This document shows, one piece after another, positions 7,242 to 61,105 of a stretch of DNA of 64,000 nucleotides (positions are counted from its first letter, which is position 1; the number at the start of each line of letters is the position of its first letter). Under the pieces are notes generated by a model. It was given only the letters and a program-made list of their open reading frames with translations, ran no database searches and was not told where the DNA came from. Origin of the DNA: Rhynchobatus australiae (taxonomy: Eukaryota). The stretch spans positions 22,746,764 to 22,810,763 of the forward strand of contig JAUZTB010000066.1 of the NCBI GenBank assembly GCA_034780895.1, in the 5' to 3' direction. The position numbers and the translations under genes are program-made.

Positions 7242-7445
7242 TGTGAATAAAAACTAAAAATGCTGGAAAAACTCAGCAGGTCAGGCAGCATCTGTGGAGA
7301 GAGAAGCAGAGTTAACATTTCAGGTCAATGACCTTTCATCATGTGTCCTGATAAATGGAGTGCTGATGGCCTGAAATACAAACCCTATTTCTTCCTCCAT
7401 AGATGCTGCTTGACCTGCTGAATATTTCCCACATTTATGGTTTAA
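7242..7445. mobile_element. Palindromic Penelope-derived short element with decayed hammerhead-like centre
   Basis: Arms ACTCAGCAGGTCAGGCAGCATCTGTGGAG and CTCCATAGATGCTGCTTGACCTGCTGA are inverted. Minus strand 7310-7343 reads ATGATGA-AAGGTC-ATT-GACCT-GAAATGTTAACT. Confidence 0.75.
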
Positions 7446-7664
7446 TATATCTCTCCTTCTCATAGCATAGTTCTGCCCCAATGATAGAACTAAACAGGTC
7501 ACCTTGCCAGGCACAGTGGAGGGGCAAGACATTTGAGTCACCCACTACCACGTACATCTACCACAAATGGGGCTAGTTCAGGGTTCTGGTGTGACCACAG
7601 AAGGTGTCCTAATGGGCAGTGAGTCCAGAGGAGTGAGGACATTCAGTCACCATCGGGCACACTA

Positions 7665-8290
7665 CTTGATGACTGATGTCAGCATCTCAGAGGATCTATC
7701 TTTGGACCAACATATTGATGCAATCACAAAGAAGGCACGCCAGCAGCTCTACTTCATTAGGAGTTTGAGGAGATTAGGTATGTCACCAAAGACTTTTGCA
7801 AATTTCTACAAATGTACAGTGGAGAGCATTCTGACTGGTTGCATCACCGCCTGGTATGGAGGCTGCAATGTGCAGGATCGCAAGAGGCTGCAGAGGGTTG
7901 TAGACTCAGCCAGCTCCATCACTCTAACCCTCCCTGCCATTCTGGACATCTTCAAGAGGCAGTGCCTCAAGAAGGCAGCATCCATCATTAAGGATCCTCA
8001 CCATCCGGGAAATACCCTCTTCATATTACTACCATTGGGGAGGAGGTACAGGAGCCCGAAGACCCACACTCAATATTTCAGTAACAGCTTCTTCTCCTCC
8101 ACCGTCAGATTTCTGAAGGGTCCATGAACTTGTGAGCACTACCTCATTATTCCTATTTTGCAATATTCATTTATATTTGTGACTTATAGTAACATTTATG
8201 TCTTTATATTTTGCACTGTACTACTGCTGCAAAAACAACAAATTTCACAACATATGTCAGCGATAATAAACCTTATTCGGATTCTGAGTT
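7665..8290 (+). mobile_element. Rex1/Babar-type LINE 3' end (ORF C-terminus plus tail)
   Basis: ORF 7567-8127 has ISEDLS...KKARQQLYFIRSLRR...FYKCTVESILTGCITAWYG...IIKDPHHP...GRRYRS...NSFF, typical of the Rex1 post-RT region. It ends in AATAAA and ATTCTG-like tail repeats near 8265-8288. Confidence 0.85.
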
Positions 8291-8690
8291 GGTAACTGTC
8301 ACAGGCTTTACTGCTCCAAGGTGTCCTCTGTCCTGCAGAGACACTGTAATTCACCATGTTCCTCTGGCACAGGGTGGGACGATGTACACAGTGAATTTTG
8401 TCTGTGTAATGTTGGAATGCCAGATATGTCTGTGTGACCACTTCATGCACTTGCTGACAATGTCTGCTTTGCAGCTTCCTGTACATTGTAGCTGAGACGA
8501 GTGAATGACTCAATACCTAGAACGGCCTGCTTGCTCCAAACTTCTCCCTGTGTGCTTCACCAACATTCACCTGCGGTAGGTCAGAANNNNNNNNNNNNNN
8601 NNNNNNNNNNNNNNNNNNNNNNNNNNNNNNNNNNNNNNNNNNNNNNNNNNNNNNNNNNNNNNNNNNNNNNNNNNNNNNNNNNNNNNCTAG

Positions 8691-8926
8691 TGTGAATAAA
8701 AACTAAAAATGCTGTAAAAACTCAGCAGGTCAGGCAGCATCTGTAGAAAGAGAAATAGCTGATGTTTCAAGTTGAAGACTCCCCATCAGAATTGTCTAGA
8801 TGAAGGTTCTTTGACCTGAAATATTAATTGTTTCTCTTTCCACAAATGTTGACAGACCCGCTGAGTTTTCCCAGCATTTTCTGCTTTTACTTCAGATCTC
8901 CAACTTATATAGTTTTTTTTATCTTC
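8691..8926. mobile_element. Palindromic Penelope-derived short element with decayed hammerhead-like cores on both strands
   Basis: Inverted arms. Plus strand: TAGATGA-AGGTtctttGACCT-GAAA (8797-8821). Minus strand: CTGATGG...GAAAC (8764-8789). Confidence 0.75.
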
Positions 8927-9400
8927 AAGGACTAGGGCTTCTCACTACTGCTGCTTTCTCAGTATCTTTCTTTGGCTCTCTACAGAGCTGTGTCTGGAGC
9001 TCCTGATATCAGCGAAAAGGCATTGAAAACATACAAATATTTATTTGACAAATTGAGTGTTGGCAGAGAGAGAAAGTCTTTAAAACAAACCACATAACTC
9101 TGAGTTCTGCAGCAGAAGAAAACTGCTTTGTATGGTTCCATGAAAAGCTTTGTGGTATATATCTGAGAGAATGCTGTGTCTCCTTCAATGGCTGACACTT
9201 CATTGTAACACTTGAAGTCTCCTGTAGGGCCCAGTTACCCACTGTCAATCATGCTGCCAGGATAGAACAGGCTGTTGGTGCTCATCCCAACCGGGTGACC
9301 TAGGTGGGAGCGTCAACAGTACTCAAGGGCAAATCTGTCATTGTATTCAATCCTTCAGAATGGGTGCAATCTGAGATTCAAGTAAATTTTCAAAAGAGGC
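8927..9400 (-). mobile_element. Decayed L1/Tx1-like ORF2 remnant, upstream part (APE endonuclease end and linker)
   Basis: Minus translations: FT*...RIEY...PVGMS (like FTW...SRID...SDH), WNHTKQFSSAAELRVMWFVLKTFSLCQHS, and AL*RAKERY*ESSSSEKP, which continues in frame into 7241 once the insert is removed. Confidence 0.5.
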
Positions 9401-12400: not shown

Positions 12401-12489
12401 TACAATCTCCTCCTCAACAGCACTGGGGAAGAGTTCAGAATCAGCCACAATGAGAGAGTTCTAATCTTTCTCAGGAACAGCAAGCATCT

Positions 12490-14033: not shown

Positions 14034-14034
<1 letters not shown>

Positions 14035-14073
<39 letters not shown>

Positions 14074-14309: not shown

Positions 14310-14960
14310 AAAATAAGGTCCTGAGGACACAGAATTAAAGTGAAGGGCAAAAGATACTGGTGGGGGAGGGAAGATGGGGGGCTGTGGGGGCTGAAAGGAA
14401 AGCTGTTTTATTCAGAGAATGGTGATGGTCTGGAAGTCACTACCTGTTAAGAGTTAATCGAGGCTTTTAGAAAGAAATTGAATAGACACAGGGGAAAATA
14501 ATTCAGAAGGCTCAAAGGAAAGAGTAAGGGAATGAAACAAAAGAAATAAGGAGCAGGAATAGACCATTTCGCCCGACGAGATTGCTCCACTGAATAAGAT
14601 CATGCCTGATCTGATCTTGAACTCTACTCCATTTGCCTGCCTGTTCTCTCTAATTCTCAGTTCCCTTATAATCCAAGATTGGGTCAATCACTGTCTTGAA
14701 TATATTCAATGATTCAGCCTCTGCTGCTCTCTGGAGTGAAAAATGCCAAAGATTTACAACTCTCCGAGCGAAAAAATTCCTCCTCAACTCTATGAAATGG
14801 ATGAACCCTTGTCCCTTGTTCTGAAACTCAACATGTCCTAATTAATGTTCTAGTTAATTCTCCCTACTTCTAAATTCACCCACAAGAGAAAACACCCTCT
14901 CAGCATTTGTCAAGCCCTCTCAGAATCTCATCAGTTTTAATGAGGTCACTCTCTATTGCT
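14310..14960. mobile_element. Two adjacent CR1 3' fragments: plus (about 14310-14530), then minus (about 14535-14960)
   Basis: Plus: GGACACAGAATTAAAGTGAAGGG...CAGAGAATGGTG. Minus: ATAAGGAGCAGGAATAGACCATT...AATAAGATCATGCCTGATCTG...AAATTCCTCCTCA. Confidence 0.75.
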
Positions 14961-15154
14961 CCACAAGCAGCTGACATGGACCCAATGTGTCAAATGGCCT
15001 CCTGCACTGCAGTGATTCTGTAGGCATGCTGGTTGTGCATGATAAATCCTTCAGATATGATAGCCATATCCTCAGTCTTGTGCAAGGTCAAAACAAAACC
15101 TGAATCACATTGGGGAAGGAACAGTGCAAGCAGTTGCTCTTGCTTGATCTTCAG

Positions 15155-16130
15155 GTGAACATACAAGCACCTGAAGTAGGAGCACAAGTAGCCCCTTGGA
15201 CCTGCTCCACTTTGAATAAGATCATGGCTAATCTGATTGTAACTCCAACCCTGTAACAACATCTACCCAAGGGATCTTCATTCCTTTGCTTATCAAATAC
15301 CTAATCATCCTGCCTTAAAAATATTCAAAGACTTTGTTTTTACTGCTTTTTGAGGAAGATAGTTCCAAGGACTAGCAACTTTTAGAGAAAAAGTTTCATC
15401 TCATCTCTGTCTTAACTGGATGATTATTTGGTGTTAAACAGTGATCCCTAGTTCTTTATTCTCCTGCAAGAAGATACATCCTCTCCACTCTGTCAAGAGC
15501 CCAGGATCTTGTATGTTTCAGTCAAGTCCTTTGTCACTCTTCTAATCTCCATTAGATACAAGCCCAGCCTGTCCAAACAGTTTTCTGAGGACGATTCACC
15601 TATTCCAGGTGTTAATCAAGTAAACCTTCTCTGGACTGGTTACAAAGCATTACCATTCTTCCTGAAAGGAATAAATGATATCGTTCTCTTAGCTTTCCTA
15701 ATCACTTGCCGTACCTGCTTACTAGCTCTGTGTAATTCATTAACTAGGACGTCTAGATTCCTCTGCATCTCATAGGTCTACAGACTTTCACCATTTAGAT
15801 AATTGGCTTCATTTTTTTGTTACTTTTCCTTCCAAAACAGTCAATTGCACATTTTCCCATGTCGTGCAACACTTGGCAACTCACTTAACCTATCTATATT
15901 CCTTTACCAACCTCCTTATGGCCTCTTTACCTCTATCTTGGGTGTTTCATGGTCAGTGTGGCCTTGCCATATGACTATGAAATCAATCCTCCCACTCTTT
16001 GTATCATCAGCAAATTTTGCAACCATTCCTTCATGCAAGTCCTCGACATAAATTACAAAAAGTTGAAGCTCCACCATTAATCCCAGTGGCACACCACTCA
16101 TTACTTCCTGCCAACCAGAAAAAGATCAAT
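15155..16130 (-). mobile_element. Decayed CR1 LINE (RT core to 3' tail, internally deleted)
   Basis: Minus ORF 15916-16101 (SGVPLGLMVELQLFVIYVEDL...KFADDTK) carries CR1 RT motifs; the tail lies near 15160-15250. Confidence 0.85.
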
Positions 16131-18970: not shown

Positions 18971-21900
18971 TATGTATTCCTTTCAAATCTTTGCTAAGCC
19001 AGTTGCACTGTCACGCTTGTTTCTGGAGAAAAGACCTTAGAGGATGCTACAAGGTTTGAGATTGAGAGCTGAGCCACAGATAACATGAAGCAAATTGCAG
19101 AATAAATCCTTGGAAACCATTGTTGGTGACAATGTTAAAGTGGGCTGCTCTCTGCAAAATGCCACCCTATCCTTTTGATAGACATAAGTAAAGCATTCAT
19201 GGGCTCCATTGCAAGTCAAGGATTTTGGTTTCTTTTCTGGAACACAGGTGCATTGAAACAGCATTGTGACAGTGGATTCAGAGAAGAATGTGTCTCAGGC
19301 AGATGTCAACCAAAGCTCGACCGCTTCCCAATAAAAGCCAAGTAAAGCTATTAACTAATTGCCCACAAAAACAATAGCCAAATCTTACTTGGTGATTGCT
19401 AAACTTGGAAGATCCTTGATACCCCCTGATCCTGCTAAATGTCAGGGTTTTGGTCAAATTATTCTGATCAAACAAAAAAATATTAACAGTTTGAACTTCA
19501 AAGGACCAATTCATTCATTTGTTAGTGCAACGTGACAAAGTACAAATGATTACACAGAATAAATGCATGTAAAAAAGTATATTCCAGGTACGTCAGAAGT
19601 AATTATTTAGCAGAAGGATAATATTCAAAAATTGTTTGCCAAGCTTAATACAATCACAAAAAAAAGTAAAAGATAGGTCAGATGAGGAAAAGTCTATTCA
19701 GAGTGCAGTGAAAATGTGGAGTTCTTAGCCACAAGATATGCTAAAAGAAGAATAATAAAGGTGATGGGACTGAGCAGGAGAATGGGACTAAACATTAGGA
19801 TTTGGGAAAAAGACATTGACCTGATACGTTGATGTGTCTCTCCTGTTGCTTAATCTTTCTTTGATTCTGTGGCCTACATGGACAGGAAGGGAGTTTGATG
19901 GATAGAGTTTCATAGTGGAGCTCTGCATGCTGTGCTGTTAATGCCATGGTGTGCTTCTTTGGTCCTCAGATGGATTTTCTTTCAGATGTCAGCCTAATAG
20001 AAAGGCTGGTCTCTGATCAGGCAGGGATAACTCCGGACAGTATGACTTAGGTCTGCTTCCAATTCAGTTTTAACACATCATAACTGACAATGGGGGACAA
20101 ACTGAATGCATTCTTATCCCCAAGATGTTTTTGTGGGGCGAAGTGTTTGACCAGGACTAGGAGAGGGACTTCTGCCAATTTAAATTGCCATTTTGCCTCC
20201 TGCAAGTGAACTCCCCTTGTCCCACCTCCCCCCAACCTATAAGGAGGGAAAATTAGAGGTAGGTTGGTGTTCTGATTCAGCAGTTTAAAATCTGACTCCT
20301 CCCAATGCCTCTTTAGGTGTTAAAAATTTATCCTGAAGATTCTAGGTTACATACACAAATGGCAGGCATTGATTTAAATCAAATCACATTCATATTCTAC
20401 TCTGGGGAAAGTTGGGCNNNNNNNNNNNNNNNNNNNNNNNNNNNNNNNNNNNNNNNNNNNNNNNNNNNNNNNNNNNNNNNNNNNNNNNNNNNNNNNNNNN
20501 NNNNNNNNNNNNNNNNNNNNNNNNNNNNNNNNNNNNNNNNNNNNNNNNNNNNNNNNNNNNNNNNNNNNNNNNNNNNNNNNNNNNNNNNNNNNNNNNNNNN
20601 NNNNNNNNNNNNNNNNNNNNNNNNNNNNNNNNNNNNNNNNNNNNNNNNNNNNNNNNNNNNNNNNNNNNNNNNNNNNNNNNNNNNNNNNNNNNNNNNNNNN
20701 NNNNNNNNNNNNNNNNNNNNNNNNNNNNNNNNNNNNNNNNNNNNNNNNNNNNNNNNNNNNNNNNNNNNNNNNNNNNNNNNNNNNNNNNNNNNNNNNNNNN
20801 NNNNNNNNNNNNNNNNNNNNNNNNNNNNNNNNNNNNNNNNNNNNNNNNNNNNNNNNNNNNNNNNNNNNNNNNNNNNNNNNNNNNNNNNNNNNNNNNNNNN
20901 NNNNNNNNNNNNNNNNNNNNNNNNNNNNNNNNNNNNNNNNNNNNNNNNNNNNNNNNNNNNNNNNNNNNNNNNNNNNNNNNNNNNNNNNNNNNNNNNNNNN
21001 NNNAAGAACTTGTCAACAGATACCAGTGGCCACAAATAGTTTGATGCATTTGTCATTTTTATTCTGCGGATCTGCACCACAGTGTAATTATTCACCTGAC
21101 TGCAGCATACTTAGTTGTAAAGTGGAGGTGAATTTCCTTCTTTTCAGATTCAGATAGAAAGTCTCCAAGGGGTGAAAATTAATTCATCCCGGGCACTTGT
21201 GCTAAAAGCATTTATGTATAGTCGTGACTGTGTGTTGTGCTCTGCTTGGCAACTGGCTTTGCACTGACGTCAGTGGAACCAAACTTCGACATACATGGCT
21301 CAGGCGTACTCATTCTCGATTCCCCTCTGTCATTCCAGATGTGTGGTGTTAAAGGTCCCTGCACCAAGTTCCTCTTGGTCTCAGTTTCTTGCTTTGTGGG
21401 ATAGAACACATGGCAGTGTGTTGTGGCTTGATATTATTTCTCTTGAAATGAGTGCAACTCGCAGTAGAGTCAAAATCATGCAGTTGGAAAGAGTGATCAC
21501 CTCATAGCATTAATGTAGATGGTACAAATCAGGGGAGGAGCCACTTTTGCACAGCTTTCAATTAATGGTATAATTCTGAGTCCATTTGGAATGGATGCCA
21601 AAAAGAATTGCAAGAGAATTTTTTGAACTTGATATGAAATCTTATTAATTTCAGCAGAGACTTGAACAGGCAGCTGGTTTATGGCTAACTGTAACATGTA
21701 ATTGAAATTCAGATGTCAATGGGGTAGAAATTGGTGGGCTGGTGCCCCAGTCTCAACGCTGAGTGATCAGTGTCCACCCAAATCAAAACAGCCAAGGATG
21801 GGTGGAACTCCTTGCTGAGGCAAACTCACCCAATGAAGGGCGAGAGTGATGAGCTACCTGTCTCAGTGGAGGCAGAACTTGGGTAAATAAAGTGATAGGG

Positions 21901-22124: not shown

Positions 22125-22527
22125 AGGCATCAGAGGGGAGGATCTCATTGAAACCTACCGAATATTGAAAGGCCTGGATAGAGAGGACGCAGAGAGGATG
22201 TTTCCAGTAGTGGGAGAGTCTAGGACCAGTGGGCACAGCCTCAGAGTAGAAGGATGTCCCTTCAGAACAGAGATAAGGAGGAATTTCATTAGCCAAGGGG
22301 GTGGTGAATCTGTGGAATTCATTGCCACAGACGGCTGTGGAGGCCAAGTCATTGGGTATATTTAAACTGGAGGTTGATAGGTTCTTGATTAATAGGGGCA
22401 TCAAAGGTTACGGGGAGGAGAATGGAGTTGAGAGGGAAAAATAAATTAGCATGATTGAATGGCAGAGCAGACTCGAAGGGCCGAATAGCCTAATTCTGCT
22501 CCTATGTCTTAAGATCTTATGGTCTTA
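22125..22527 (+). mobile_element. Well-preserved CR1 LINE 3' end
   Basis: ORF KGLDREDAERMFPVVGESRTSGHSLRVEGCPFRTEIRRNF, terminal GGGCCGAATAGCCTAATTCTGCTCCTATG and a TCTTA-type tail. Confidence 0.9.
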
Positions 22528-26894: not shown

Positions 26895-27055
26895 TTAATA
26901 ATAAAGACAGAGAATGCTGGAAACACTCAGCAGGTCAGGCAGCATCTGTGGAAAAAGAAACAGTTAATGTTCAGGCCCGTTAATGTTCAGGCCCTCTGTC
27001 AGAACTGGGAAAGAATTTTGTTTCAGATTTCCAACATCTGCAGTTTTTTTTTGAC
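26895..27055. mobile_element. Partial Penelope-derived palindromic element
   Basis: AATGCTGGAAACACTCAGCAGGTCAGGCAGCATCTGTGG arm, internal 16-bp tandem duplication GTTAATGTTCAGGCCC, and TTCAGATTTCCAACATCTGCAG. Confidence 0.7.
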
Positions 27056-31364: not shown

Positions 31365-31937
31365 CCCAGATCTGGAACACGAGATGTGGGTCCAGATAGG
31401 GAACACTCGGTGTGGGTCCAGATTGGGAGCATGCGATGTGGCCACAGAACACATGGTGTGGATCCAGACACTGAACACACGGTGTGGGTCCAGACATAGA
31501 ACATGTGGTGTGGACACGGACATGGAACACGCGATGTGGATCCAGGCACGGAACACGTGGTGTGGATCCAGGCACAAAACACGTGGTGTGGGTCCAGACA
31601 CAGAACACACAGTGTGGACACGGACATGGAACACGTGTGGATCCAGGTATGGAACACGCAGTGTGGGTCCAGACACGGAACACGCGGTGTGGACATGGAC
31701 ATGAAACACACAGTGTGGGTCCAGACATGGAACATGCGGTGTGGACACGGACATGGAACACGCGATATGGATCCAGGCAAGGAACACGCGGTGTGGACAT
31801 GGACACGGAACATGCAGTGTGGGTCCAGACACAGAACACGCGGTGTGGATCCAAATAGGGAACATGTGGTATGGATGCAGACACAGAGTACAAGGTGTAG
31901 ACCAAGATATGTACAGGGTGTGGATTCAGACATGGAG
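31365..31937. repeat. 26-bp minisatellite, about 22 units, three interspersed variants
   Basis: Consensus near GCGGTGTGGGTCCAGACACGGAACAC; variants have GGTCCAGA, GACACGGA/GACATGGA or GATCCAGG in the middle. Confidence 0.95.
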
Positions 31938-32149
31938 GTCTTAGCAGCTGAATTTCTAACCCACCAGCATCTCCTCACTGTTCCAGCTGGCAGTGATCAT
32001 TCTCAGTGACTTGTGCTTTGGTGCCTCAGTTCAGCTTCTTCAGACAAGTAGTCCACAGTAATTGCCAGGTGCATGCTCCTTGATTTAAGGCATTTGGCTA
32101 TTCTGTTAGTCAACTTTTATCAGCTGCATCCACAGTATATTAATGAATA

Positions 32150-32270
32150 CTACAGAAAAATACCTCAGATGCTGGAAATCTGAAGTAAAATCAGAAAATG
32201 CTTGAAACGCTCAGCAACTCAGGCGACAACTGTGGAAAGAGAAACAATGACTTAGGTCATAAATCCTTCA
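32150..32270. mobile_element. Half copy of the Penelope-derived element
   Basis: CAGATGCTGGAAATCTGAAGTAAAATCAGAAAATGCTTGAAACGCTCAGCAACTCAGGC...CTGTGGAAAGAGAAAC. Confidence 0.7.
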
Positions 32271-33589
32271 GCAGCCTCCTTGCTCATGTTCTGCTTCAAT
32301 CTAAATTCTGATTTTGTGATCCAGGTCTTTGTGTTTGGCCTACCACACCTTGTCTCTGCACCCCTATAGTTGTTGGTGGTCTAAGTGACCACAGCCACTT
32401 CACAAATGCACCCAGGATCAGTATTAGAACAGCAACTAGAATACAGTGAAATTCCTTAGGAAAGAATGGTTTGTTCAGAGAACTACTTACTGATTGGTGA
32501 AGGCAGAAATGTGTTATGGAGGAATTCTAGTCAGCTTCTGCTGACTAATGATTGTCTGTTTTGTAATTTGCCCATGTATTTAGAAGGAGGCTTTTCACCA
32601 TTTTGACATTTTTCCAGAATTTGTAAAAAGGTCACATTTGAGCTACATAACACTTAAATGGCTTTAAGTTGAGTCTTTATTTTCATATTTTAACCTACAA
32701 ACACAGAGGATCTGTAGTTAATTTCTTTGATGTGTAAAGAGGAAAAGAATCTCATTATAGCCTGGAGGCACATTGCATGAAACAAAAGCATATGACCTTG
32801 TAGGCTGAACTGTCGCAATTTAATCAAGGTTCTTCGTTGAGCTACAAGAGGCAACTTAATTCTCACAACCTTGACTGATGATGATCGCTAAAGTGGTTGT
32901 TAATTGGTGAGAATAGCTCTCGTCAATCCTGAAAAGGTCTCCTTGGAGGGATCTGCGTTTCATGTAGTGAACGTGACAGATTGTCTGCATTTCCATACTG
33001 GAACCAGCCCTCACTGTTCTCCACATAATGCGCGTTCAGTCTCTGTGGTGGGATTCGAATTTACCCAATAAAAAATTAATTATGGGAATGTCAACAAAAT
33101 ATATTGCCTGTCAAAGAGTAATGGGAGGGCAGTGGTTACTGCTGGTGAAATTGAGGAAGGCCACATGGGACAGTGCAGAAAGGTGTACAGCCTCTGGCAG
33201 CATTCCTCTGGTTCACAGGGAGTTTAACCTTGGCAAGAACTTGGGAAATTGGTTCCTTTTGAGTAATTGATAGTATTTGAATTGCAGTGCAAAGCAGGAG
33301 GAGGCAGCAAGGAATGTGAGCTTNNNNNNNNNNNNNNNNNNNNNNNNNNNNNNNNNNNNNNNNNNNNNNNNNNNNNNNNNNNNNNNNNNNNNNNNNNNNN
33401 NNNNNNNNNNNNNNNNNNNNNNNNNAACTACAGTCCATTCTGCTATGTTGGAGGCTGGAGGTTGAAGTGCCTCCTAAAGAAAACGGCTTTCTATATTCTG
33501 TTGATTTTAATGTTGTGCCTGGTCTGTCAGGAATCATTTACCATCAGAAATGCACCGAGCAGTAATAATGTCAGAGGCATTACAGCCTA

Positions 33590-38489: not shown

Positions 38490-38873
38490 TCAAAGGTGAG
38501 TTTATTGTCACATGCACAAGTGCGTGTATGCACAGGTGCAATGAAAAACTTACTAGCACAGCATCACAGGCACATAGCATCAGAGACACAACATTTACAA
38601 GAAAAACAAATTAAACATTTTTACACAATATTTACAAGAAAGAGCACAATTAGAATTTTAAAAATTGTCTAAGATATTAATGTAGATTGTGAATGGCCAC
38701 AGCTGAATAACTTCCCAAGACCTGCAATTGTACAGTGGGGCTGTGAGTAAGTGCAGCTGATAACCAGGGGACTTGCCTCCTTCACACTGTGCCTATGATG
38801 CTGCTGCAAGTAAGTTTTTCCTTACACCTGTGCACGCATGTATTTGTGCATAAAACAATAAACTCAACTTTGA
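38490..38873. mobile_element. Two LINE/SINE 3' tails in opposite orientation forming about 85-bp inverted arms
   Basis: 38490-38574 is the reverse complement of 38788-38873 at roughly 80-85% identity by eye; each carries AATAAA plus a CTTTGA-like tail pointing outward. Confidence 0.75.
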
Positions 38874-39200: not shown

Positions 39201-40009
39201 AGTTGAATTACTGTGGAAGAAGGTGGAGACAAATAACATTCTCCTTCATTCAGGGGATGAATTAATAATTTCTGCACTGCACAAAATTGCAGCAAAAAAT
39301 AGACAGTTTTTATTACCACGCATAGCTTTGCTGTGTCACTGAGGAGATAGAGGGAGATGAACCGATAATGTTTCAGGTGGGTAAAGTTTCATTAGAAATG
39401 CACTTTAAGCTTTCCAGCATTACTGCATTTTGCTTATGCATTTACATTTGTTTTTTGACTCTGCTCACTTTTCCCTTGGCTTGCTGAACTGTGCAGCCCA
39501 ACAGAGTCCCACTTTTGATTTCTGATCTGCATTGAGTTCACTGCTGGTTGCCTGAAACCAAGTTCCATTTTCCATCCTTCACTTTGAAGAACAGAATACT
39601 GCGAAACAAAATTTGAAATGAATGGATTGCCTGACATTCCTTGGGCCAGTGTCTCTTCCACGTGTTGGAAAGGTGGCTTTCATTTTTAAATGCTTCTTGT
39701 TCCCTCAAATCATGGAAGAGAGTCAATGCAGGTTTTGAAAGTGACAAACAAGGTGGACAGCAGAAGGTAGTAAAAGGTTTACTCGATATCTCACAGATCA
39801 TTATCAGTTACCCTTGCTGGAATTACTGTGCGAAGTGCCTGAAACCTTCCATATACTGTTTTCTCATTTCCATGACAAAGCTGGAATTTGGGAATGCAGG
39901 AGAGTCAGAGCTTTCTTGCTGGACAAAAGGTGAACATACTTAAATACTGGACTTTGATTCTCTCCTCTTGTTGACGTAATAACTCATTGCTGAATACATG
40001 TCCAAAGAA

Positions 40010-40435: not shown

Positions 40436-40699
40436 TGCTCCTTAGTTGTTCATCTAGTTGCATCAATTATAGCGATTATCAGCATGCTGGGGATAAAACA
40501 AAAGGACACAACATAGTGAACACTGGTGCTGCACTTAATCTGCAGGCATCAATTTACACAAGGAGCTCTAGCTAATTTTTGCATCAGATGATTCATAACG
40601 GATCAGAAATCAGAACTGGGAGCTTGTTGGACTGCATAGTTCAACGAACCACTAGAAAAGTGATTGGAGTCAGAAATAAATACAAAATCAAATCCTGCT

Positions 40700-40818
40700 G
40701 AAATAAACACAGACAATGCCTTTGAAATGAAAGGTCAATGCCCTAAATGTCAATATTGTTTCTGTCCTCATAGATGTTGCCTGACATGCTGAGTATTTAC
40801 AGCATTTTCTGTTTTTCT
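40700..40818. mobile_element. Partial Penelope-derived element
   Basis: ATGAAAGGTCAATGCCCTAAATGTC...CATAGATGTTGCCTGACATGCTGAGTATTTACAGCATTTTCTG. Confidence 0.65.
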
Positions 40819-41539
40819 TTGAGACAGATGCATGCTATATGTAAATGCATGATGTCATTGCATAGAATATTTGATCATGTGTATCGCTTTGTGCATGTGC
40901 ACGTCTGAGATGAACCTTGAATAAACCACAAACACCTTTCTGAGCTCTCTGTGTTTCCCACAGATTACTCGGCACACTGCATGTTACTCTGCTGGAGACC
41001 GGCGACCCACAGGGATCTATACATTACAAAATGTGCAGATGTTTTGTGATAAATTTGTGTCTGCGACTCCTGCGCAAGTTAATGCTCAGGGCTGTAATAC
41101 TCTCAAAACATTGGTGATCTAAATTACATGCACATTTCAAATACTATGAAAAGAAATCACATGGAGCTGTTACATCAAACTGGTATCAAATAGCTTGATA
41201 CTATTGTATTGGAAGCAGGCCAAACCCTTTCACTAATGGCAGAACAGGACCCAGCTGTTTGATGCATCAGCTTTGGTCTTATGATAAAGCTGAATTTCTT
41301 TGTCATATTAAACCTAGACTTTAGGAATGAATGTCCATTAATCTGGGTATGACTGTTGTTTTCCCTCAACATACTTCCACTACAAATTAGATATTGTGCA
41401 GCATTTTTCCTTAGATGGCAGGACTTGCTATAAAGTACTTGAGAGCATCAACATCTGAAAGGCAAAATGATTATCTAGAAAATTATCAACATATTCAATG
41501 ACTTTTTTTGCCATCGATCACCAGCGTGTAATGTTTTGG

Positions 41540-45075: not shown

Positions 45076-45304
45076 NNNNNNNNNNNNNNNNNNNNNNNNN
45101 NNNNNNNNNNNNNNNNNNNNNNNNNNNNNNNNNNNNNNNNNNNNNNNNNNNNNNNNNNNNNNNNNNNNNNNNNNNATGAAAAAGCAAAAGGCCAAGAAGT
45201 TTTTGTGCACATGCAGATGCTTGCTAAAATGGCATCAGTTTTGTGTAGAGAAGCAATTTTCTTTTGTAGTTAATGTGTCTGGTGTCAAACACATAAGCAT
45301 TCGG

Positions 45305-45410
45305 AAGTGCAACACTCAAAACATTGGAGGAACTCAGCAGGTCAGGCAGCATCTATGGAGGGAAATGGACAGTCAACGTTTCAGGTCAAGACCCTTCACC
45401 TGGACCGAAA
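45305..45410. mobile_element. Half Penelope-derived element with well-preserved hammerhead-like 3' half on the minus strand
   Basis: GGAGGAACTCAGCAGGTCAGGCAGCATCTATGGAG arm; minus strand reads CAGGTGA-AGGGTC-TT-GACCT-GAAACGTT-GACT. Confidence 0.7.
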
Positions 45411-46164: not shown

Positions 46165-46365
46165 ACAGAATCAGAAAACACTAGGCAGGTAAGGCAGCAT
46201 CAATGCAAAGAAAAACATAGTTAATGTCTCAGATCTGAGACCCTACATCAGATTTGAAACAATAATTCTGTTTCTCTTTCCACAGATGCTGCCTTTCCAG
46301 CTGATCATCTCTAGCATTTCCTGTTTTTATTTCAGGTTTCCAACATCTGTAATTTTTTGATTTTT
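46165..46365. mobile_element. Palindromic Penelope-derived element
   Basis: GCAGGTAAGGCAGCATC ... CCACAGATGCTGCC arms; centre partly deleted. Confidence 0.7.
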
Positions 46366-49300: not shown

Positions 49301-50124
49301 TTTTGCAGTCCCTGCCTGCTGCCTGCATGTGTTAATGTGGGGTCTGAGTTACTCGACCATTTTCCTCCCTTCCACCTGTTACTTCCAACCTGCAAGATCT
49401 GAGGAAACACTTATGAATGGCCTCAATTATCCCAATACAGAGACAAGGCTGAGCAGATTCCCCTTATTCCTCCAATTTTCTCCAATGCCCTATCTCCTGA
49501 ATGCTTCAGGCTTAATGTCACAAGATAGTACTGCTTCTTTATGAACTCTGAAAAGTGTTCTGGTTTTGTTCTTAGCTCCAGAGTTTGACCTGTTGATTCA
49601 TCACTGCCTGAATGAGCACAAATATCCCCAGTCAAAACTCATTCACTGGCTGCAGTGAGCCTTTTGTCTGATACACTCAGATAATTTCCAAGTTCTATCA
49701 ATGGGTTTAAATGTCTTCCACTTACATTCACTGGAAATGATGGAGCTGAATATTGCGCGTCTGCTTGGGACATAATTTAGAGGATCGATTCATCTGTCTT
49801 AATTTCTGTTGCATTGAATTCAGTGGGAAGTGAAGAATACTAGATTACCAGCTATCAGGTAAAGATAAAGGTTGTGCTTTGCCTACTATGGTTTGTTTGT
49901 GGTGAATGTCTTCATATGCTATTGAATTGAAATATTATGTAGTTTAGTTGGAAAATGCACAGGGAAAATGATCGCTGGTCAGTGCAAGAGTTTGAATATA
50001 AAATCTATTCCCATCCCATTCCTGCACTGACTTCTCTGCCTTTGGTGTCCTCCGCTGTCCCAACAAAGCTCAACATAAACTTGAGAAAGAAAAACTTGGA
50101 ACTTATTTTATTTCTAACCTTTCC

Positions 50125-50240
50125 TAGTTCTAATGTAAGGTCATCAACCTGTAGCATTAACTGTGGTTCTCACTCCACAAGTGCTGCCTGACCTAGTGCT
50201 ATTATTTCAGATTTCCAGCATGTCCATTATTTTGCTTTCA
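50125..50240. mobile_element. Half Penelope-derived element
   Basis: AGTTCTAATGTAAGGTCATCAACCTGTAGCATTAACT...CCACAAGTGCTGCCTGACCT. Confidence 0.65.
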
Positions 50241-50804
50241 GATTGGTGGTTTTTAATATGCCAGCCTTGTGGAGGGACAAACAAAATGAGTCAAGAGTTC
50301 CCATATCCATCGATAACTTACTTAGAAGTGTCCAGATAAAGTAAATTGGATCGGCGTGCACACATTATATGGTCAGATCAAAATGCCAAACATTAGCATA
50401 ACATTTACATTAAACCAGAACTTCTAGTGGCTGGAAAAATTGATCCAATGGTTTNNNNNNNNNNNNNNNNNNNNNNNNNNNNNNNNNNNNNNNNNNNNNN
50501 NNNNNNNNNNNNNNNNNNNNNNNNNNNNNNNNNNNNNNNNNNNNNNNNNNNNNNCACATTCAACTTTACCTGCAGAGTTCTTTGGAGTTCAAGTTGAACC
50601 CTCCAAGATTCTGGACCAAAAACAATATCATATTGTGGTTGTCTGCTGTTGAATCAGTCAGCTTTCTCATATTTAAAATCTGTCCTGACATAACATGTGG
50701 TCAGACTGGTGGGCATCCTGATAAGGATAATATCACCATATATTCATCATTACTAGGTGAAAATGCTGGAACAATTCCCAACAGCATTGTTTTCAGTCAC
50801 AGTA

Positions 50805-52559: not shown

Positions 52560-53235
52560 TGTTATTCTTTGAACTGGTTCTTTGGAAATTGAGAGCCTTG
52601 GTTTAAGACACCACCACTGATAGTGCAGCACGCCCTCTGTAAAGCAGTGAACCGCTCCCTCCGTACTGCAGTGCACCGCTCCCTCCGTACTGCAGTGCAC
52701 CTCTCCCTCCGTACTGCAGTGCACCACTCCNNNNNNNNNNNNNNNNNNNNNNNNNNNNNNNNNNNNNNNNNNNNNNNNNNNNNNNNNNNNNNNNNNNNNN
52801 NNNNNNNNNNNNNNNNNNNNNNNNNNNNNNGCTCCCTCCGTACTGCAGTGCACCGCTCCCTCCGTACTGCAGTGCACCACTCCCTCCGTACTGCAGTGCA
52901 GCACTCCCTCACTACTGCAGTGCAGCACTCCCTCACTACTGCAGTGCACTGCTCCCTCCGTACTGCAGTGCAGCACTCCCTCTGTACTGCAGTGCAGCAC
53001 TCCCTCACTACTGCAGTGCACCGCTCCCTCCGTACTGCAGTGCAGCACTCCCTCTGTACTGCGGTGCAGCACTCCCTCACTACTGCAGTGCACCGCTCCC
53101 TCCGTACTGCAGTGCACTGCTCCCTCACTAGTCTACTGCAGAATCAGCCTTGATGATTGTGCTTAACTTCGTAGAGTGGGACTTGAGGCCACAATCTCCT
53201 CACTCGATGCTTCCCGCTAAGCCCCAGCTGGCATT
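52560..53235 (-). mobile_element. Deu-domain SINE hosting an internal minisatellite
   Basis: Flanks GCCTTGGTTTAA...AGTGCAGCAC and TGTGCTTAA...GAGTGGGACTTGA resemble SINE sequence on either side of the array. Confidence 0.6.
52622..53129. repeat. 24-bp minisatellite, about 17 visible units, interrupted by a 100-N gap
   Basis: Unit GTGCAGCACTCCCTCCGTACTGCA; the ORF track shows an 8-aa period (CSTEGVLH). Confidence 0.95.
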
Positions 53236-54744
53236 TGAAGATTGTGCAGAAGAAAGATGAATGATTTAAGGCTATTATCAGGCCTCAAGAGCACTCTTGG
53301 TTCACAGTTGAATGAGAAGTAAGACGAGGAGCTGGGTTTCGGTGTCCCACGTTTAAACAATAGCTGAAGAACCACACAGCTCTGACCTCGGGCAGTAATT
53401 CATGACTTACCTTGCTGTTATGTCTGGTACAAATACACAGAGGAAAAGAGTCAAGTTTACATAAATGGCAGATGTGGCTCTCTGTCAGTTTGTAATTTGA
53501 AAGTCACATGCATTCAGAGACCAAATAGTATCATCAGGAAGAAAATTGTTGTTTCATTTTTGGGAACTTAAAGGTTGAAATTGAGACTCTACTTGATAAT
53601 AGCTTCCCCTTCCTCAGAAAGGGTCCAAAATGAACAGAATTAAAACAACCTCAATTGAATTTCAGGTGGTGCAAATCAACAGCAGTTTGGGATCTGACCA
53701 GAATGGCTGATCTGTGAAGGTGGGGTTCTCACAGAAGATTAAGACAGATCCAAAGGGCAACAAAGAGGAATGTTTACTGCCTGCACAGAGTGCATGGTGC
53801 TCAGATGAACATCGAGGGTGGGAGGTAGAAATTTGTCTTCCACAGTGGTGCAAAATGGCCTTCTCAAATCAGCTGCTGCTGTGCACACCACCTGATACAG
53901 TCATACCTACATTGAGGAATCTTCAATTTTTGCTAAATTTCAATGTAAGCCAAAATCACGACTTTTAGGCTTGGGACCATCGTTGCTGAGTGCTGCCTCA
54001 CTCATTCGCTCACACACTGACTCTTTCTGTCTTTTACTCCTTCACACACAATGTCTCTCTAATCAGGTACCCAATCCAGAAAGAAGAGAGGGTGACAGCA
54101 GAGGGTCAGTACCAACAGTGCAAAGGAAAGAGGGAGTACAAAGCGATTGGCACATGGATATTCTGGTCAGGGTTTGGGGACCATGAAGAGGTTTTTGGGA
54201 GTCAGCTCCTCTTGCCAGTAAGGGGCAGTTGGCAGGTTAGTGGGACTGGCTCCTGGGGACGGATCAAATCATGAATTAGGGCTGTGCCTCCACCACCCTG
54301 GGTATGAGAGAGAGCAAAGCATCCCTTCTCCTACCCCAAACCCAAGGTCATTACTGTTGAATGCTGCCCCCATTTGTACTGAAGAATGGTAAGTAATGGT
54401 AAGTAATGGCAACTGGTTATCAACAGGAGCAACAACTTCAAAATTAGCAGATATAAAATATTTTTAGGGAGTGTTGATGTTGTTTATGCTCAATATTTTC
54501 CACTACTTTGCCTGTTGAAACTCAGCCGCAATTTTCAAAGTTCATCTTGGAAATTAGGCAGGCCTTACGGAAGTATAATTCCACATCAGTCAGTGGAATT
54601 AAATATCAAGTGCCACATTTGTGAAGCAAAATAGTCAGCAAATGTATGTTAATTTAGAAGCTTACCTGTTCTTTTTCTCACCTGGAGATAGCCTCATCAA
54701 CAATTCAGCTTTCATCATCTCCACATGAAGTAGATTGAAAATCA

Positions 54745-54918
54745 AAAACTGCTCATTCTGGAAACCCGAAAGAAAAACACAAAGTGCTAGAAATAATCAG
54801 TGGGTCAGGCAACATGATAAAGGATCAATGGCCTGAAATATTATCTCTGTTTCTCTCTCCACACATGCTGCCTGAATTGCTGAGTGTTTCCATCATTTTC
54901 TGTTTTTTTTATTTCAGT
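54745..54918. mobile_element. Palindromic Penelope-derived element
   Basis: TCAGTGGGTCAGGCAACAT ... CCACACATGCTGCCTGAATTGCTGAGT arms. Confidence 0.65.
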
Positions 54919-55559: not shown

Positions 55560-56170
55560 TATGTTTGCTGTGGTTCACTTCTGTATCAGAAGCTTTTGGG
55601 TTCAAGTCCCAATCCAGATACTTAAGCACAAATATCCAGAATGATACTCCATTTCAATATAGAAGAAATATTGCACTGGTTAAGATGCCGTCATTCAGAT
55701 TAGCCATTAAATACGGGCTCTGTCTGTTCTCTGAGGTGGATGTAAAAAATCCCAAGGAATTATATGGAAGGGTGGTGGAATTCTCTCCACTGTCCTGGCC
55801 GGTATATAACCTTCACCCAGCATTTCTGTTTGTGAATCTTGTTAAGTACAACAAACAATCTGCTGGAGGAACTCAGCAGGTCAAGTAGCATCTATGGGGG
55901 AAAAGGAATTGTCAACATTTCGGGTCAAAACCCTGCATCAAACATTGACAATCCTCCCACAGATGCTGCTCGACCCGCTGAGTTCCTCCAGCAGATGGTC
56001 TATTGCTCCAGATTCCAGCATCTGCAGTCTCTTGTGTCTCCATTCCTAAGTGCAGTTTTGGCCACCATTTTTTCTACATTGCAAGAAGGAGGTGCCTCAG
56101 AAGTCTTGCATTTGCTGTAAATGCTTTGGGATATCTGGAAAGAAAGGTGCTATGCAAATGCAATTCTCAG
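55560..56170 (+). mobile_element. Deu-domain SINE interrupted by a Penelope-derived palindrome
   Basis: GGGTTCAAGTCCC B-box-like motif, Deu core AGGTGGATGTAAAAAATCCC...TGTCCTGGCC; resumes after 56045 with GCTTTGGGATATC...AAAGGTGCTATGCAAATGCAA. Confidence 0.75.
55848..56041. mobile_element. Younger-looking palindromic Penelope-derived element (second subfamily)
   Basis: ATCTGCTGGAGGAACTCAGCAGGTC...TAGCATCT pairs with AGATGCTGCTCGACCCGCTGAGTTCCTCCAGCAGAT. Minus strand: TGATGC-AGGGT-TTT-GACCC-GAAATGTTGAC. Confidence 0.8.
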
Positions 56171-56579
56171 TTTAATAAATCATTCCTGACTTTGGATGAG
56201 GATGGAAATGGACAACTGGGAAAACTTGAGAATGGAAGCTAGGAAGAGAGGGGAGCGATAGGGTAGCTTCACTCACAAAGAATAATTTCAACAGAGTAAC
56301 TGCACTACAGAACAGTGGAAGACCACTTTCTAAATAGTGTTCCGGATTTTGAATTTCAAACCAGCAAAATAAAAATGAAAGGAAGCCTTTTCTCCCCTCC
56401 TCATTCTAATATGCAGGAAGCGGAATGGCAATGTCTAACAAAGTTTTTATTTTATCTTGGGCCTCTAGCCGCAAGCTCCATTTTCATTGCATCCCCTTTC
56501 ACCTTCTTTTTATTGCCTTTGCCTATTCATTCCTTTCATTTTTTTTGGTTAGACCAGCTATTTGTTTCGGACCCCAGAG

Positions 56580-57020
56580 GCGTTCACAAGCACTAGGTTG
56601 TTAATGGCAATCAAACGCTTTCACACTTAAGGCAGAATGTTTGATTTAATCGCAGAGCTGTCTATTATTCTGCTGCACTATTCCATGGAGGCAGCCTTCT
56701 GATCAAATGCTCACTCCCAGGAGCATAGGTTTTTTTTGTTATGTCTAAATCCTCAGTACAAATTGCAGTATTCCTGTGCTCCCAGTGGGATTCATTACTG
56801 CCTGTGGGGCATTAAAGATCATTAATAGTGCTGTCAGAGAAGCTAGCCAGTTGCTTAGCTTCTCATAAATGGGAAATTAATACATCTGGTTCATTAATAA
56901 TGCCTTGTGTTTGATGTTTGTTGGCTGGCAGCTTTAATGATGTAGGTCTGGGGCGACAGGGCGCTTCACCAAGTTAGATTTTCCAATTAGCCAGCCCTTT
57001 TTTTTCTCCTCTCTTCCAAA
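56580..57020. promoter_or_regulatory. Candidate conserved non-coding element
   Basis: TE-free; TTAATGG (56601), TGATTTAAT (56642), CTGTCA, and repeated ATTAAT/CAATTA. Inference only. Confidence 0.35.
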
Positions 57021-58584
57021 GAATCAGTCCTCAATTATCACTTCTGTGTAAAAAAAATTGGGGTGTGGTAGAAGCGGGAATGTGATGACAACAATTTACA
57101 CTCTTACCATTTGTCCATTAATCTTAGTTCTTCCCGGAACCTTCCTTGCAAAATGTTCCAGGGAAACAGTTTCATCAAAGAAAATATTTCATTTGTTTGC
57201 AGCTCAAAGGAAACACGTTTCATTTGTACAATACCTCTACTGTGATAAAATGTTTCAAGCATCTTTTGTGAATCAAGAGGTGATTGAAGAAATAGGGTTG
57301 CTATACCAACTGAGCCTTTGTTATATCCAGCCTTGCCCTGGTCTCCTGGCCAAAGTCCCTGGGAGATCCTTCATGTATATCGGAGTGTCATAGCTTGCTG
57401 CTGTAGAGGCAGCTACGATGAGAATGGGCCATCATTCATCTACTGCTAGGATGTGCATTTGCCAAGGACGTCTGGAAAGAGGTGCAATGGTCTTTATCAA
57501 GGTTCATCCTTTTCAGCTGCTTTACACATGACAGTGTTCAATGAGCTGTTCCTTGGGACACATACTGAGGTAAACATCAACTGCTTCTGGAAGACCATCC
57601 ACTTGGTGAAAGATTTTGGTCTGCCCAAAACTGGTGTTCCAGTGCAAGTGACTGCTACAGGCTGGCACTCTAAGATCTAGGACTACATGCTGAAGTGTCT
57701 GTTGAAGTTTGGTGCATTGGTCAGAAAGGGTCTAAAGGGAAAGGCCACATTTTATGGTCCCCCCTTGCATTATACACTGATAGTCTGGGCTTGTGTGAAA
57801 ACCCTGTGGACTGTCACACTCATGCAATGTAAATGGGAAGGCATGGGTTGCACTAAAAACAGTGACATGAATGGCTGTGATTATATACACATCCAAACTC
57901 TATGAATAAACAAACACATTAGAGACCTGTAAAAAGAAGCTTGAGCTTATCCAAAACTCTGTTGGCCATATGCAAATCCATATCCATTCTCCAGTTCCAC
58001 TTGCCTACTTTGGCTACCAGTTTAATAGTGCCTCAACTAAAATACTAATTTTTACATCTAATTTCTTTGAAAGCCTATTCTTTTCTTCCTCAGTAACCAC
58101 CTCCATCCCTTTATGAGCTCTGTGCTTCTCTGCTTTTGTTATTTTGCATGTCTCTGATTTTCTAATCTGCACCATTGGTACCTTCAGCTTCCTCAGCCCT
58201 AACTTTTGCAAATCCCTCCTGTGGGAATGACGGATTCATTGTTCTGCCAGGCTCTTTTTAGGATACAACTCATGAATCTCACGTTAGCAATACAGACTTT
58301 TACAGTGGGTTCCCCTTCACATTACCAGTGTAATCCATTAGGTTCTTCTTGTAATTTATTGTGGAATATAAAAAAATCTCACTTGGAATATCAAGAGAAT
58401 ATACCCGTTTTTGTGGCAATCAGATCTCCATCTATCTGATGGGATACTACATACAATGCTGCAATGGTTAAGCATGTAACACAGCATGTGAGGATAGTAG
58501 TGATCCCACCAACTTTAAACATAATAGTTCATACACATGAGCCAGAATTCAATGTGAATGCATAACACCTCGCTAGACCCCAAA

Positions 58585-59085
58585 AAGCAAAGAAAAACTA
58601 CAGAATAAAAGCAGTTAATGCTGGAACTGCTCAGTAGATCAGGCAGGATCCATGGAGGGAGAAACAGAACCAATGTTTCAGGTTGATGTCTTTCATAAGA
58701 AAGAGGATAAGTTGGAAAGTGAACACATTTTTCAGTTGCAGGGATAGGGTAGAGGGGTGGAGAGGACACGGGATATCTGTGGCAGGGTGGAGATCAGGAG
58801 AGATTGAAAGAGATTGAAGTGATGGTGGTTCCGACTGAGGGAGGGTTGTGAAGGCTTGTTAATCACAGCTGATCTGTCTAGAGGCGAGGTAAGCAGAAGG
58901 AGATGATGAAGAACAGAAAATGGAGAAAAAACATTGGTGGATTTGTGAAATGAAAAACACTGCAGTTACTGGAAATCTGGAAACAAAAGACAATGCTAGA
59001 AATGCCCAGCAGAAGAGGAAAAAAACAGACTTAACAACATTTTGCTGACTTTTCATCAGAACTGACAAGTTCTGAAGGCTGGACT
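58585..59085 (-). mobile_element. Penelope pseudo-LTR, inverted relative to the element body
   Basis: Two repeat arms with a purine-rich spacer that mirrors 60680-61105; an intact AGTTCTGATGA lies on the minus strand at 59053-59063. Confidence 0.65.
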
Positions 59086-59149
59086 ACCCCATTAGACCAT
59101 TGCCTCAGCCTGTTCTTGACCCAGGAAACTTATTCCTTCCTACCTTGCA

Positions 59150-59822
59150 TACAAACATATGAATTAGGAGCAGGAGGAGCCACTTGAACCCCTGAGCCTG
59201 CTCCACCATTCAATAACATAGCTGAAATGATCATCTCAACTCCGCCATTCCACCTACTCCCTGTAACTATTCCCACCTTGTTTATCTATCTATCCTTGTC
59301 TTAAAGATATTCAAAGACTGTGCTTCCACCGTTCTTTGAGGAAAAGACTCCCAAAAACTCACAACCCCCCCCCAAGAGAAAATAATTTACTTCATCCCTT
59401 ATATTTATACAGTGACCCCTTGTTCTATATTTTCTGAATCTCATTCGCCCATATCCACCTAAGCAAGACTCCTCCAGATCTTAAATGTTTCAATCAAGTC
59501 ATCTCTCACTCTTCTAAACTACAGTGGAAACAAGTCTAGCTGATCCAACCTTTCCTCATAAGACATTTGAGATATCAGGCTAATAACAGCACTCAATCTG
59601 CACTCATACCAGTGTATATAGATCCTTCCCAAAATAAAGAGATCTATGTAGCACACATTACTACAGAGGTGGTCTTATCAAGCCCTATGTAGCTGAAGCA
59701 TGACCTTCCAATTTTTGTATTCAATTCCTCCAACAATAAACAATAACATTCTGTTAGCTTTCCTAATTTGTGGTTGCATGCAACCATTTTGAGAATCATG
59801 CATTAGGAAACTCAGATCCGTT
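59150..59822 (-). mobile_element. CR1 LINE 3' portion lying inside the Penelope structure
   Basis: Tail CATACAAACATATGAATTAGGAGCAGGAG...CCTGCTCCACCATTCAATA; body similar to the 15155-16130 copy. Confidence 0.8.
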
Positions 59823-59824
59823 TC

Positions 59825-60630
59825 CACCTCCATCCCATTTCAAGGAGATCTGAGGGCCTTTACTTCATGAGCAGAGTCCCTCTCCATCACCAATCTCCTT
59901 CACTTGGATGAACTCACTCACACCCTGACCAAGTTCTCATTCACTTCCCCAAGGTGCAGCCATGGGAACCCACAAGGATCCAACTTTTCTGAGATTTGTG
60001 GAAGAGTTTTTGTTTCAGTTCAACTCATCACCCCACCTGCCACTGACCTCTTCTGTTTTTGATACAGTGGAGCTATTTTCTGCACTCAAACAGAATTCAA
60101 ATGTTCCATCTTCTTTGCTGCTGGTTTTCGCACTGCTCTCACATTCATATGGTCCATCTCTGACTGTTGCCATCCCTGTCAGGACTTCTCTATTACCAAG
60201 GGTTAGTGATCATTATCCATTACAAACCACAGACTTCCACGGCAATCTTGACTGCAACACCCAGGCATGTTACTGTAAGGACTGCGTTCCATTCTCCCAG
60301 TGTCGAGGACTCCATTGTACCTGTTCTGACGGCACTTTTCCCTTCCCACCACCCAGGAACCCTAACATTCCTTCCAGGTGAAGCAGCAACTCTTTTGCAT
60401 GTCTTCTAATTTGGTGTACAACATTCAGCATTGAATATGTGGTCTCTTCTATATTATGAAATCCAAGCACAGATTGAGTGACCACTTCACAGAACACAAA
60501 GGTGACCTTTAGTTCCCCATCACTTCAGATGTCTATTTCACTTCCAATCTAAGCTCCCTTTCTTTGGTCTCTTATGCTATTCCAACAAAGCCCAATGAAA
60601 GCTCAAGGAACAGCATCCAATTTACAGCCC
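59825..60630 (+). mobile_element. Decayed Penelope-like retroelement ORF (RT remnant plus GIY-YIG endonuclease)
   Basis: TSIP..., GAAMGT (GxAMG), HYKP/TDFHGNLD...CKDCVPFSQ...CSD. Manual translation of 60372-60497 gives FQVKQQLFCMSSNLVYNIQH*ICGLFYIMKSKHRLSDHFTEH (GIY-YIG pattern). Stops and frameshifts are present and no intact catalytic DD motif is visible. Confidence 0.85.
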
Positions 60631-60679
60631 TAAGAGCTCAATATTGTCATCTAACCAGCCTTTTCAGTTTGTGTTGGAA

Positions 60680-61105
60680 CTGGCCAGTTCTAATGAAAGA
60701 TCATCAACCTGTAACACTAACAGTTGTGCTCTCTCCACAGATGCACCCTGACCAATTGTCTATTTCCAGCATTCTCTATTATTTTGGTTTTCCAACAATG
60801 GCAGTGTTCTGTATTTCACACTTCTGGCATTGATTTCATTTCTCTTTTATCTGTCTTCATTCAAATTCTTGTATTCATATCTCTTCCAGGCAGATCAGCT
60901 GCTATCAGCAAGAATTCATCACACTCTCTCAAGTAGTTTTGCCGCCTTTTCCATCATACAGATATTCTTCATTTCCACTCCACCACAGTTATTTGCTCCA
61001 CCTCTGTAATTTAAAGCATATTCCATTTCTAATTTTTGCAAATTTCGATGAATGATCATTGAGCTGAAACATTAACTCTGTTTCTCCCTCCACAGATGCT
61101 GTCTC
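60680..61105 (+). mobile_element. Penelope 3' pseudo-LTR with two decayed hammerhead-like motifs
   Basis: AGTTCTAATGAAAGATCATCAACCTGTAAC (about 60686) and TTCGATGAATGATCATTGAGCTGAAACATTAACT (about 61044), each followed by CTCCACAGATGC. Confidence 0.7.

Follow-up and report, generated by a model that had tools for sequence, protein, structure and literature searches.

Hammerhead ribozymes in the pseudo-long terminal repeats (pLTRs) of Penelope-like elements (PLEs), pairs of these ribozymes on opposite strands and insertions with an inverted pLTR are all already in print, and in this respect the ribozyme of the dispersed repeat described here, from a 64,000-nucleotide stretch of Rhynchobatus australiae DNA (the window; assembly GCA_034780895.1, contig JAUZTB010000066.1, positions 22,746,764 to 22,810,763, forward strand), is an ordinary finding. 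The unit of the repeat, referred to as an arm, reads one way and consists of a minimal hammerhead, an arm proper of ∼65 nt and an optional tail of ∼35 nt. The hammerheads of PMC4209133 resemble those observed here in the CUGANGA box, one extra base, stem II, GAAA, a palindromic 15.2-16.2, NUH and a short stem I, as well as in the occurrence of several subfamilies per genome and of mostly single copies derived from truncated elements. Opposite-strand pairs in that study lie 100-700 bp apart, in contrast to 0-30 bp here, its 56-row alignment contains no shark or ray row, and pair 10.1-11.1, which is G-C there, is G-U or A-U in one of the four subfamilies (A) distinguished below.

Insertions of endonuclease-bearing (EN+) PLEs carry an inverted 5' pLTR, a one-sided tail and a target site duplication (PMC3846280, PMC8557442). 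Adineta Pen2a (PMC3846280) and the general EN+ PLE scheme (PMC8557442) share with the present repeat the head-to-head arrangement, a tail at one end (30-40 bp), duplications of 8-15 bp and strong 5' truncation; unlike them, the product here is often minimal, two pLTR ends without an open reading frame (ORF), and is present at very high copy number. In Poseidon of Anolis, PAc (Frangieh et al. 2024, PMC11167929), the hammerhead is likewise followed by ∼100-140 nt ending at two points that bound the tail, and insertions likewise appear to arise from uncleaved RNA. The PAc ORF starts in the hammerhead, and PAc belongs to the Penelope/Poseidon clade whereas the element here has a CX2-5CxxC linker. 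Non-LTR retrozymes, reported in one chondrichthyan genome (bioRxiv 10.64898/2026.07.22.740005), also carry a type I hammerhead related to those of pLTRs, but they are direct tandem repeats while the copies here are solo or inverted. Membership in that group was rejected, as a single direct pair was found among 108 random arms, together with one 76-bp duplication described below. No published description of the family in sharks or rays was found in a search which excluded Repbase, Dfam and most subscription journals, and the family may well be catalogued. Its value lies in sample size, many thousands of minimal insertions providing statistics on PLE integration.

A repeat family with a minimal hammerhead consensus

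The repeats are decayed Penelope ends carrying a minimal hammerhead, and the family is real. Profile searching detected 20 arms in the window and 108 arms in 60 random 10-kb stretches (497,479 non-N bases), a density of ∼1 arm per 4.6 kb, which extrapolates to ∼400,000 arms genome-wide. The first-round profile produced 93 matches on the random stretches and none on the same stretches reversed. A central consensus which had been assembled by eye from the window proved correct, with 40 exact genome matches compared with none in the control, and agrees with the min-HHR (minimal hammerhead ribozyme) consensus in supplementary figure S3 of PMC4209133; a relaxed hammerhead pattern matched 6,527 times, again with no control match. 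Thirteen of the 14 places originally listed contain clear arms, the copy at about 39340 being reduced to a weak hammerhead-region fragment (39350..39399, minus strand, E value 0.009-0.03). As had been stated, no window copy has a fully intact core (0 of 20 arms), and all core bases are kept in 8 of the 108 random arms. Rfam detected no hammerhead in the window at E values up to 1, and its microRNA and plastid matches there, being below the cut-off and reflecting the hairpin, were dismissed. Scanning with a strict descriptor yielded no match in the window and the first 167 kb of random sequence, and none in 10 shuffles.

Four subfamilies, A to D, are distinguished, random arms being 81%, 84%, 93% and 86% identical to their own consensus, respectively. 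The consensus is the Penelope-type minimal type I hammerhead that had been proposed, in which stems I and II are present, the palindrome ACGU stands where helix III would be and the triplet is GUU or GUC. The stems covary between subfamilies. The CUGANGAH and GAAAN-palindrome-NUH boxes are present in subfamilies A, B and C, which differ mainly at free positions (N7, H17 and loop II) or in ways that preserve pairing. At 2.1-1.1, A has U-A (40) where B, C and D have C-G (45), and at 10.1-11.1 the G-C of B to D corresponds to G-U or A-U in A; neither the C nor the D consensus retains pair 2.4-1.4, the outer one of stem I. Pairing and covariation were scored on 60 of 131 arms which had been chosen without use of the pattern, with slid alignments and 500 shuffles as controls. 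Paired cells accounted for 82.7% compared with 16-43% in the slid controls, and the covariation score was reached by only 1 of 500 shuffles; the number of covarying pairs was not above that in shuffles (331 of 500). Covariation consists of few events inherited by many copies, which fits selection on a few master elements. Preservation of the core in the copies does not exceed that of the arm, at 85% and 83%, respectively, in A and 85% and 89% in B.

In each of the four subfamilies, stem I is immediately preceded on its 5' side by a pyrimidine tract ending in YAG (for example at L102:704-725, minus strand). Among copies with an AG flanking stem I, 84 of 111 read YAG, 52 have at least 80% pyrimidines and CTRAY, which is branch-like, occurs in 10 of 29 A copies, a count made with no control. 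The tract resembles the end of the intron reported at helix I in D. virilis Penelope (PMC4209133).

The parent element

The repeat is very probably the 3' end of a Penelope-like retrotransposon encoding a reverse transcriptase (RT) and a GIY-YIG endonuclease, left in the genome as decayed solo or head-to-head insertions that are truncated at the 5' end. Of 38 ORF loci, 23 are followed within 1.1 kb by an arm on the same strand and only one by an arm on the opposite strand, with a background expectation of 0.12 per strand per 1.1 kb. At locus L102 an intact box is located 64 nt past the endonuclease stop, and the GIY-YIG domain there is 51% identical to P0014. RT followed by a C-terminal GIY-YIG endonuclease on one strand is present, in broken copies only. 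The window itself contains a decayed ORF remnant on the plus strand (59929..60512), in which an RT motif and thumb (59932-60327) are followed by the start of the GIY-YIG region (60348-60512); it was detected by tblastn (E value 0.001) and by profile (independent E value, iE, 3.5e-8) and has DNA matches to 28 places in the fetched loci. Its frame 59929-60378 has 56 genome matches, itself included, and a better-preserved relative, L106, has matches among proteins that carry RVT_1 and in many cases GIY-YIG; the two highest-ranking come from the bamboo shark Chiloscyllium punctatum (53-54%), which points to a cartilaginous fish as the likely host. The recognition of a PLE minimal hammerhead had been correct. 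The non-autonomous palindromic family then envisaged is not supported, since the arms represent 3' ends of an element that itself bears the ORF, and the palindromes differ in junction and target duplication.

Several observations weigh against this assignment. Fifteen of the 38 ORF loci have no arm within 1.1 kb, the L102 endonuclease falls below the cut-off when judged by Pfam alone (E value 0.021), and Pfam has no match for the window ORF remnant or for frameshifted ORF pieces. No full-length or intact copy was encountered (133 of 16,448 candidates scored), and among the 38 ORF loci there was neither a full-length copy nor a direct 5' pLTR before the ORF; the element is therefore known only from pieces.

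A CX2-5CxxC linker between RT and endonuclease was found in 12 of the 38 broken loci, one probably by chance, and in 58 of 60 long homologues. Since this linker defines Neptune and is shared with Nematis (PMC8557442), it points to one of these two, Neptune being the likely clade of the parent element.

Palindromes, their insertion and the fate of the ribozyme

Pairs of arms in the random sample comprised 18 head-to-head, 2 tail-to-tail and 1 direct, such that 36 of the 108 arms are in head-to-head pairs. In the window, 8 arms are unpaired and the others form 6 head-to-head pairs, in one of which the second arm is reduced to a tail fragment. The earlier description of the copies as palindromes bearing a motif on each strand is not confirmed, and the motif is often absent from the palindromes as well: in 57 not chosen by a double-box pattern, the CUGANGA box was present in both arms in 17, in one arm in 26 and in neither in 14, and both arms reach it in 2 of the 6 window palindromes. 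Genome-wide, 158 palindromes have both boxes exact, and among the 50 double-box palindromes listed the spacers are 2-30 nt and nearly all different.

All fetched DNA contained 89 head-to-head pairs, of which 64 were scorable for tails and 25 were not. A tail is present on exactly one arm in 52 of the 64 (expectation 49%, p 1e-7), on neither in 9 and on both in 3. Of 63 palindromes, 25 have flanking direct repeats of 8-15 bp, compared with 13 of 160 shifted controls; the majority of these 25 are at the arm or tail end and ∼5 look like chance. Beyond the anchor, the distance to the repeats is mostly ∼12-24 nt where the tail is absent and 40-57 nt on the tailed side. Both arms derive from one subfamily in 84 of the 89 pairs. 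Differing junctions, target duplications of their own and a single tail together constitute the published EN+ PLE signature and therefore indicate that each palindrome is a separate insertion. Weighing against this are the 12 of 64 palindromes with no tail or two, the lack of a target duplication around any single window element and subfamily B, in which arms are slightly more alike within than between palindromes (0.844 and 0.807, p 0.004), as would also be expected from fold-back copying or gene conversion.

A palindromic element copied as a unit by Penelope proteins, resembling a miniature inverted-repeat transposable element (MITE) or a retrozyme, would agree with the great excess of short ORF-less copies over ORF-bearing ones, with the pairing of about one third of the arms and with the existence of non-autonomous PLE derivatives (bioRxiv 10.64898/2026.07.22.740005). 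Palindromes differ in their junctions, however, lengths grade into 3' untranslated region (UTR) and ORF, direct tandems are as rare as the one pair among 108 random arms, and two apparent tandem palindromes (L218 and L219) were rejected as repeats flanking runs of ∼100 N. This reading is largely refuted and we regard it as exceedingly improbable; its MITE-like form, with one fixed unit and a shared centre, was discarded because of the differing junctions. A T preceding GTCC at the junctions, seen by eye and uncounted, was put down to CpG decay. A direct duplication of 76 bp with two intact subfamily C cores was observed at L220 (G000:C1:2828233-2828339), where it adjoins an inverted RT fragment, and is a natural candidate dimer.

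Alternatively, the inverted arm could arise in the same element when the first cDNA, or an antisense template, folds back and primes itself, as proposed for rotifer Penelope elements (PMC3846280). Junctions that overlap or have spacers of 2-9 nt, and the slightly raised identity in B, are consistent with this possibility. It does not account for the fixed but different end points of the two arms, one tailed and one tail-less, each beside a target duplication, nor for arms which often differ in upstream length with unrelated filler between, and identity within palindromes is not raised over that between them in A (0.749 and 0.746) or C (0.831 and 0.835). We consider fold-back priming unlikely, although it retains an appreciable chance.

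By analogy with PAc, we infer separate insertion through priming from both target strands. The Anolis PAc protein cuts and extends both target strands and uses two RT start sites which bound the tail (PMC11167929), and both-strand priming of this kind would explain why a palindrome has one tail. In such a scheme the element's endonuclease would nick the two target strands 8-15 bp apart and reverse transcription of uncleaved RNA of the element would be primed at each nick, the outer start site being used at one, where the tail is included, and the inner site at the other, where it is not. Both cDNAs would terminate prematurely, frequently on reaching the 5' edge of the hammerhead, and their joining would make a palindrome anew at each landing. 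In the master elements, selection would have maintained the hammerhead, which may act there as a dimer or together with the protein of the element; in the copies it would be a passenger.

The 5' ends of the copies are informative about the template. Selection by the downstream arm alone yielded 85 B copies, of which 64 reach past the whole core. The 5' ends of the 85 pile up at the 5' edge of the hammerhead, with 25 in 15 nt compared with 9 in 23 nt inside the core (L246-L335; 5 B and 11 C copies having been dropped because of N at the boundary). There is no clear excess of ends at the cleavage site, as 6 of the 85 B copies end within 2 nt of it and 9 over the next 23 nt; by eye, 3 of the 6 are explained by internal deletions or inverted-arm overlap. 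One of 19 C copies has its 5' end at the cleavage site. The predominance of B copies with a whole core and the lack of a cleavage-site excess suggest that templates were mostly uncleaved, as is the main template for PAc in vitro (PMC11167929).

The prediction that a transcript would contain a usable ribozyme in either direction is not supported for the palindromes, because one box is missing from most of them, the antisense arm is always transcribed first and, in the five palindrome strands whose core could be scored, adopting the ribozyme fold carries a predicted cost of 45-51 kcal/mol. The predicted cost in six solo copies is 2-8 kcal/mol. The accompanying proposal of a long hairpin agrees with folding predictions, which give the five full palindromes of the window energies of -45 to -95 kcal/mol. 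The decayed copies are predicted not to self-cleave, with the ribozyme of palindromes locked within the hairpin, and the same-sense partner on which the dimer model relies is unavailable from inverted copies.

Retention of the copies for a host function, either transcript cleavage or double-stranded RNA (dsRNA) for editing or small RNAs, was weighed with the aid of three raw-read runs from one study, in an organism not shown to be the host, queried with a B copy at 85% likeness. Matching reads numbered 9,880 of 11.1 million, 12,858 of 12.9 million and 26,014 of 12.9 million (0.09-0.2%), occurred in both orientations, with some joining opposite strands, and derive from many copies other than those of the window. 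These reads, the stability of the hairpins and the 8 random arms that keep all core bases are what such a function has in its favour. Against it, the core decays like the arm and is intact in none of the 20 window arms, the ribozyme fold is predicted to be sequestered in palindromes and read ends do not pile up in any of the three runs, the last being weak evidence because most copies are decayed. A host role is very improbable; dsRNA probably forms incidentally, which does not amount to a function.

Subfamily D differs from the others within the core, with C at position 9 in 6 of 6 sampled arms instead of the canonical A. One pattern with variants at this position yielded 1,795 genome matches with A, 2,278 with C and 211 with G or T, and the large excess of C over G or T indicates that the C form was inherited from a master. 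Carriers are the window arm at 55844-55940 and loci L238-L245. RT fragments lie within 1.5 kb of 2 of 13 D-type boxes, one of them on the same strand. The 56-row alignment of PMC4209133 contains no box with C at A9, and the available portion of a viroid review (PMC3376415) has nothing on it. We tentatively suggest, at somewhat less than even odds, that the copies are a genome-wide fossil record of both-strand priming on uncleaved RNA, and that D shows either that cleavage is dispensable for PLE transposition in vivo or that C between G8 and A9 forms a new natural active core. On the match counts above, subfamily D has spread as widely as the canonical B type, and it provides a natural test of whether cleavage by the hammerhead is needed.

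Copies and other repeats in the window

The first palindrome consists of two subfamily A arms (hammerhead plus 3' pLTR end) without tails, the left half at 7245..7341 on the minus strand, lacking C3, and the right half at 7345..7442 on the plus strand with G8 and U16.1 changed. The second has a subfamily A left half at 8694..8794 (minus, A9 changed) and a subfamily A right half with a decayed tail at 8799..8935 (plus) which begins within the CUGAUGA box. A 9-bp word at 7233..7241 (plus) recurs at 8927-8935 and is a possible target duplication bracketing both copies. These copies share 57 of 58 bases including flank (7233-7295 and 8687-8744), with an N run between, and may be one insertion that was rearranged or mis-joined. 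A subfamily A arm at 26899..27009 (minus; G8, A9 and A14 changed) has a tail-only remnant at 27016..27049 (plus) as its inverted partner.

In the fourth palindrome the left arm, subfamily A, is tail-less (46174..46254, minus) and the right arm has a tail and no CUGAUGA box (46250..46362, plus). The left arm of the fifth has a tail and no hammerhead part (54736..54815, minus), and its right arm has no tail and has lost C3 and G8 (54815..54917, plus). The sixth pairs a tail-less left arm with C at the A9 position (55844..55940, minus), of subfamily D type but assigned to B by the classifier with a small margin, with a tailed right arm beginning at GAAA (55935..56046, plus).

Solo arms of subfamily A are located at 32156..32274 (minus, extending into the tail, four core changes), 40727..40824 (plus, box truncated) and 50124..50246 (plus, four core changes), one of subfamily B at 45299..45406 (minus, U4 and A6 changed) and a short one at 61047..61104 (plus, C3 and U4 changed). 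A weak hammerhead-region fragment at 19806..19842 (plus, E value 0.003) was absent from the original list. The ORF remnant has its 3' terminal arm at 60684..60819 (plus; G5, A13 and U16.1 changed). Upstream of the subfamily A arm at 58603..58701 (minus) are ∼250 bp of the element's 3' UTR (58700-58950), followed by a second, internally deleted arm in the same orientation at 58942..59064 (minus). These minus-strand arms (58603-59064) may be the inverted partner of the ORF remnant; no duplication was found around the two, and another repeat intervenes. This second dispersed repeat occurs at 14692-15603 and at 59297-59575, the latter between the inverted arms and the Penelope ORF remnant.

A 196-codon frame at 7537-8127 matches Pfam ALKBH8_N (E value 1.3e-7), a match which we take to be typical of the end of a long interspersed nuclear element (LINE) ORF. 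Tandem arrays of 26-nt units (31366-31946) and 24-nt units (52583-53191) are also present, as are inverted repeats unrelated to the arm family at 22349-22516 with 63340-63515, 39452-39546 with 40582-40676, and 38490-38873.

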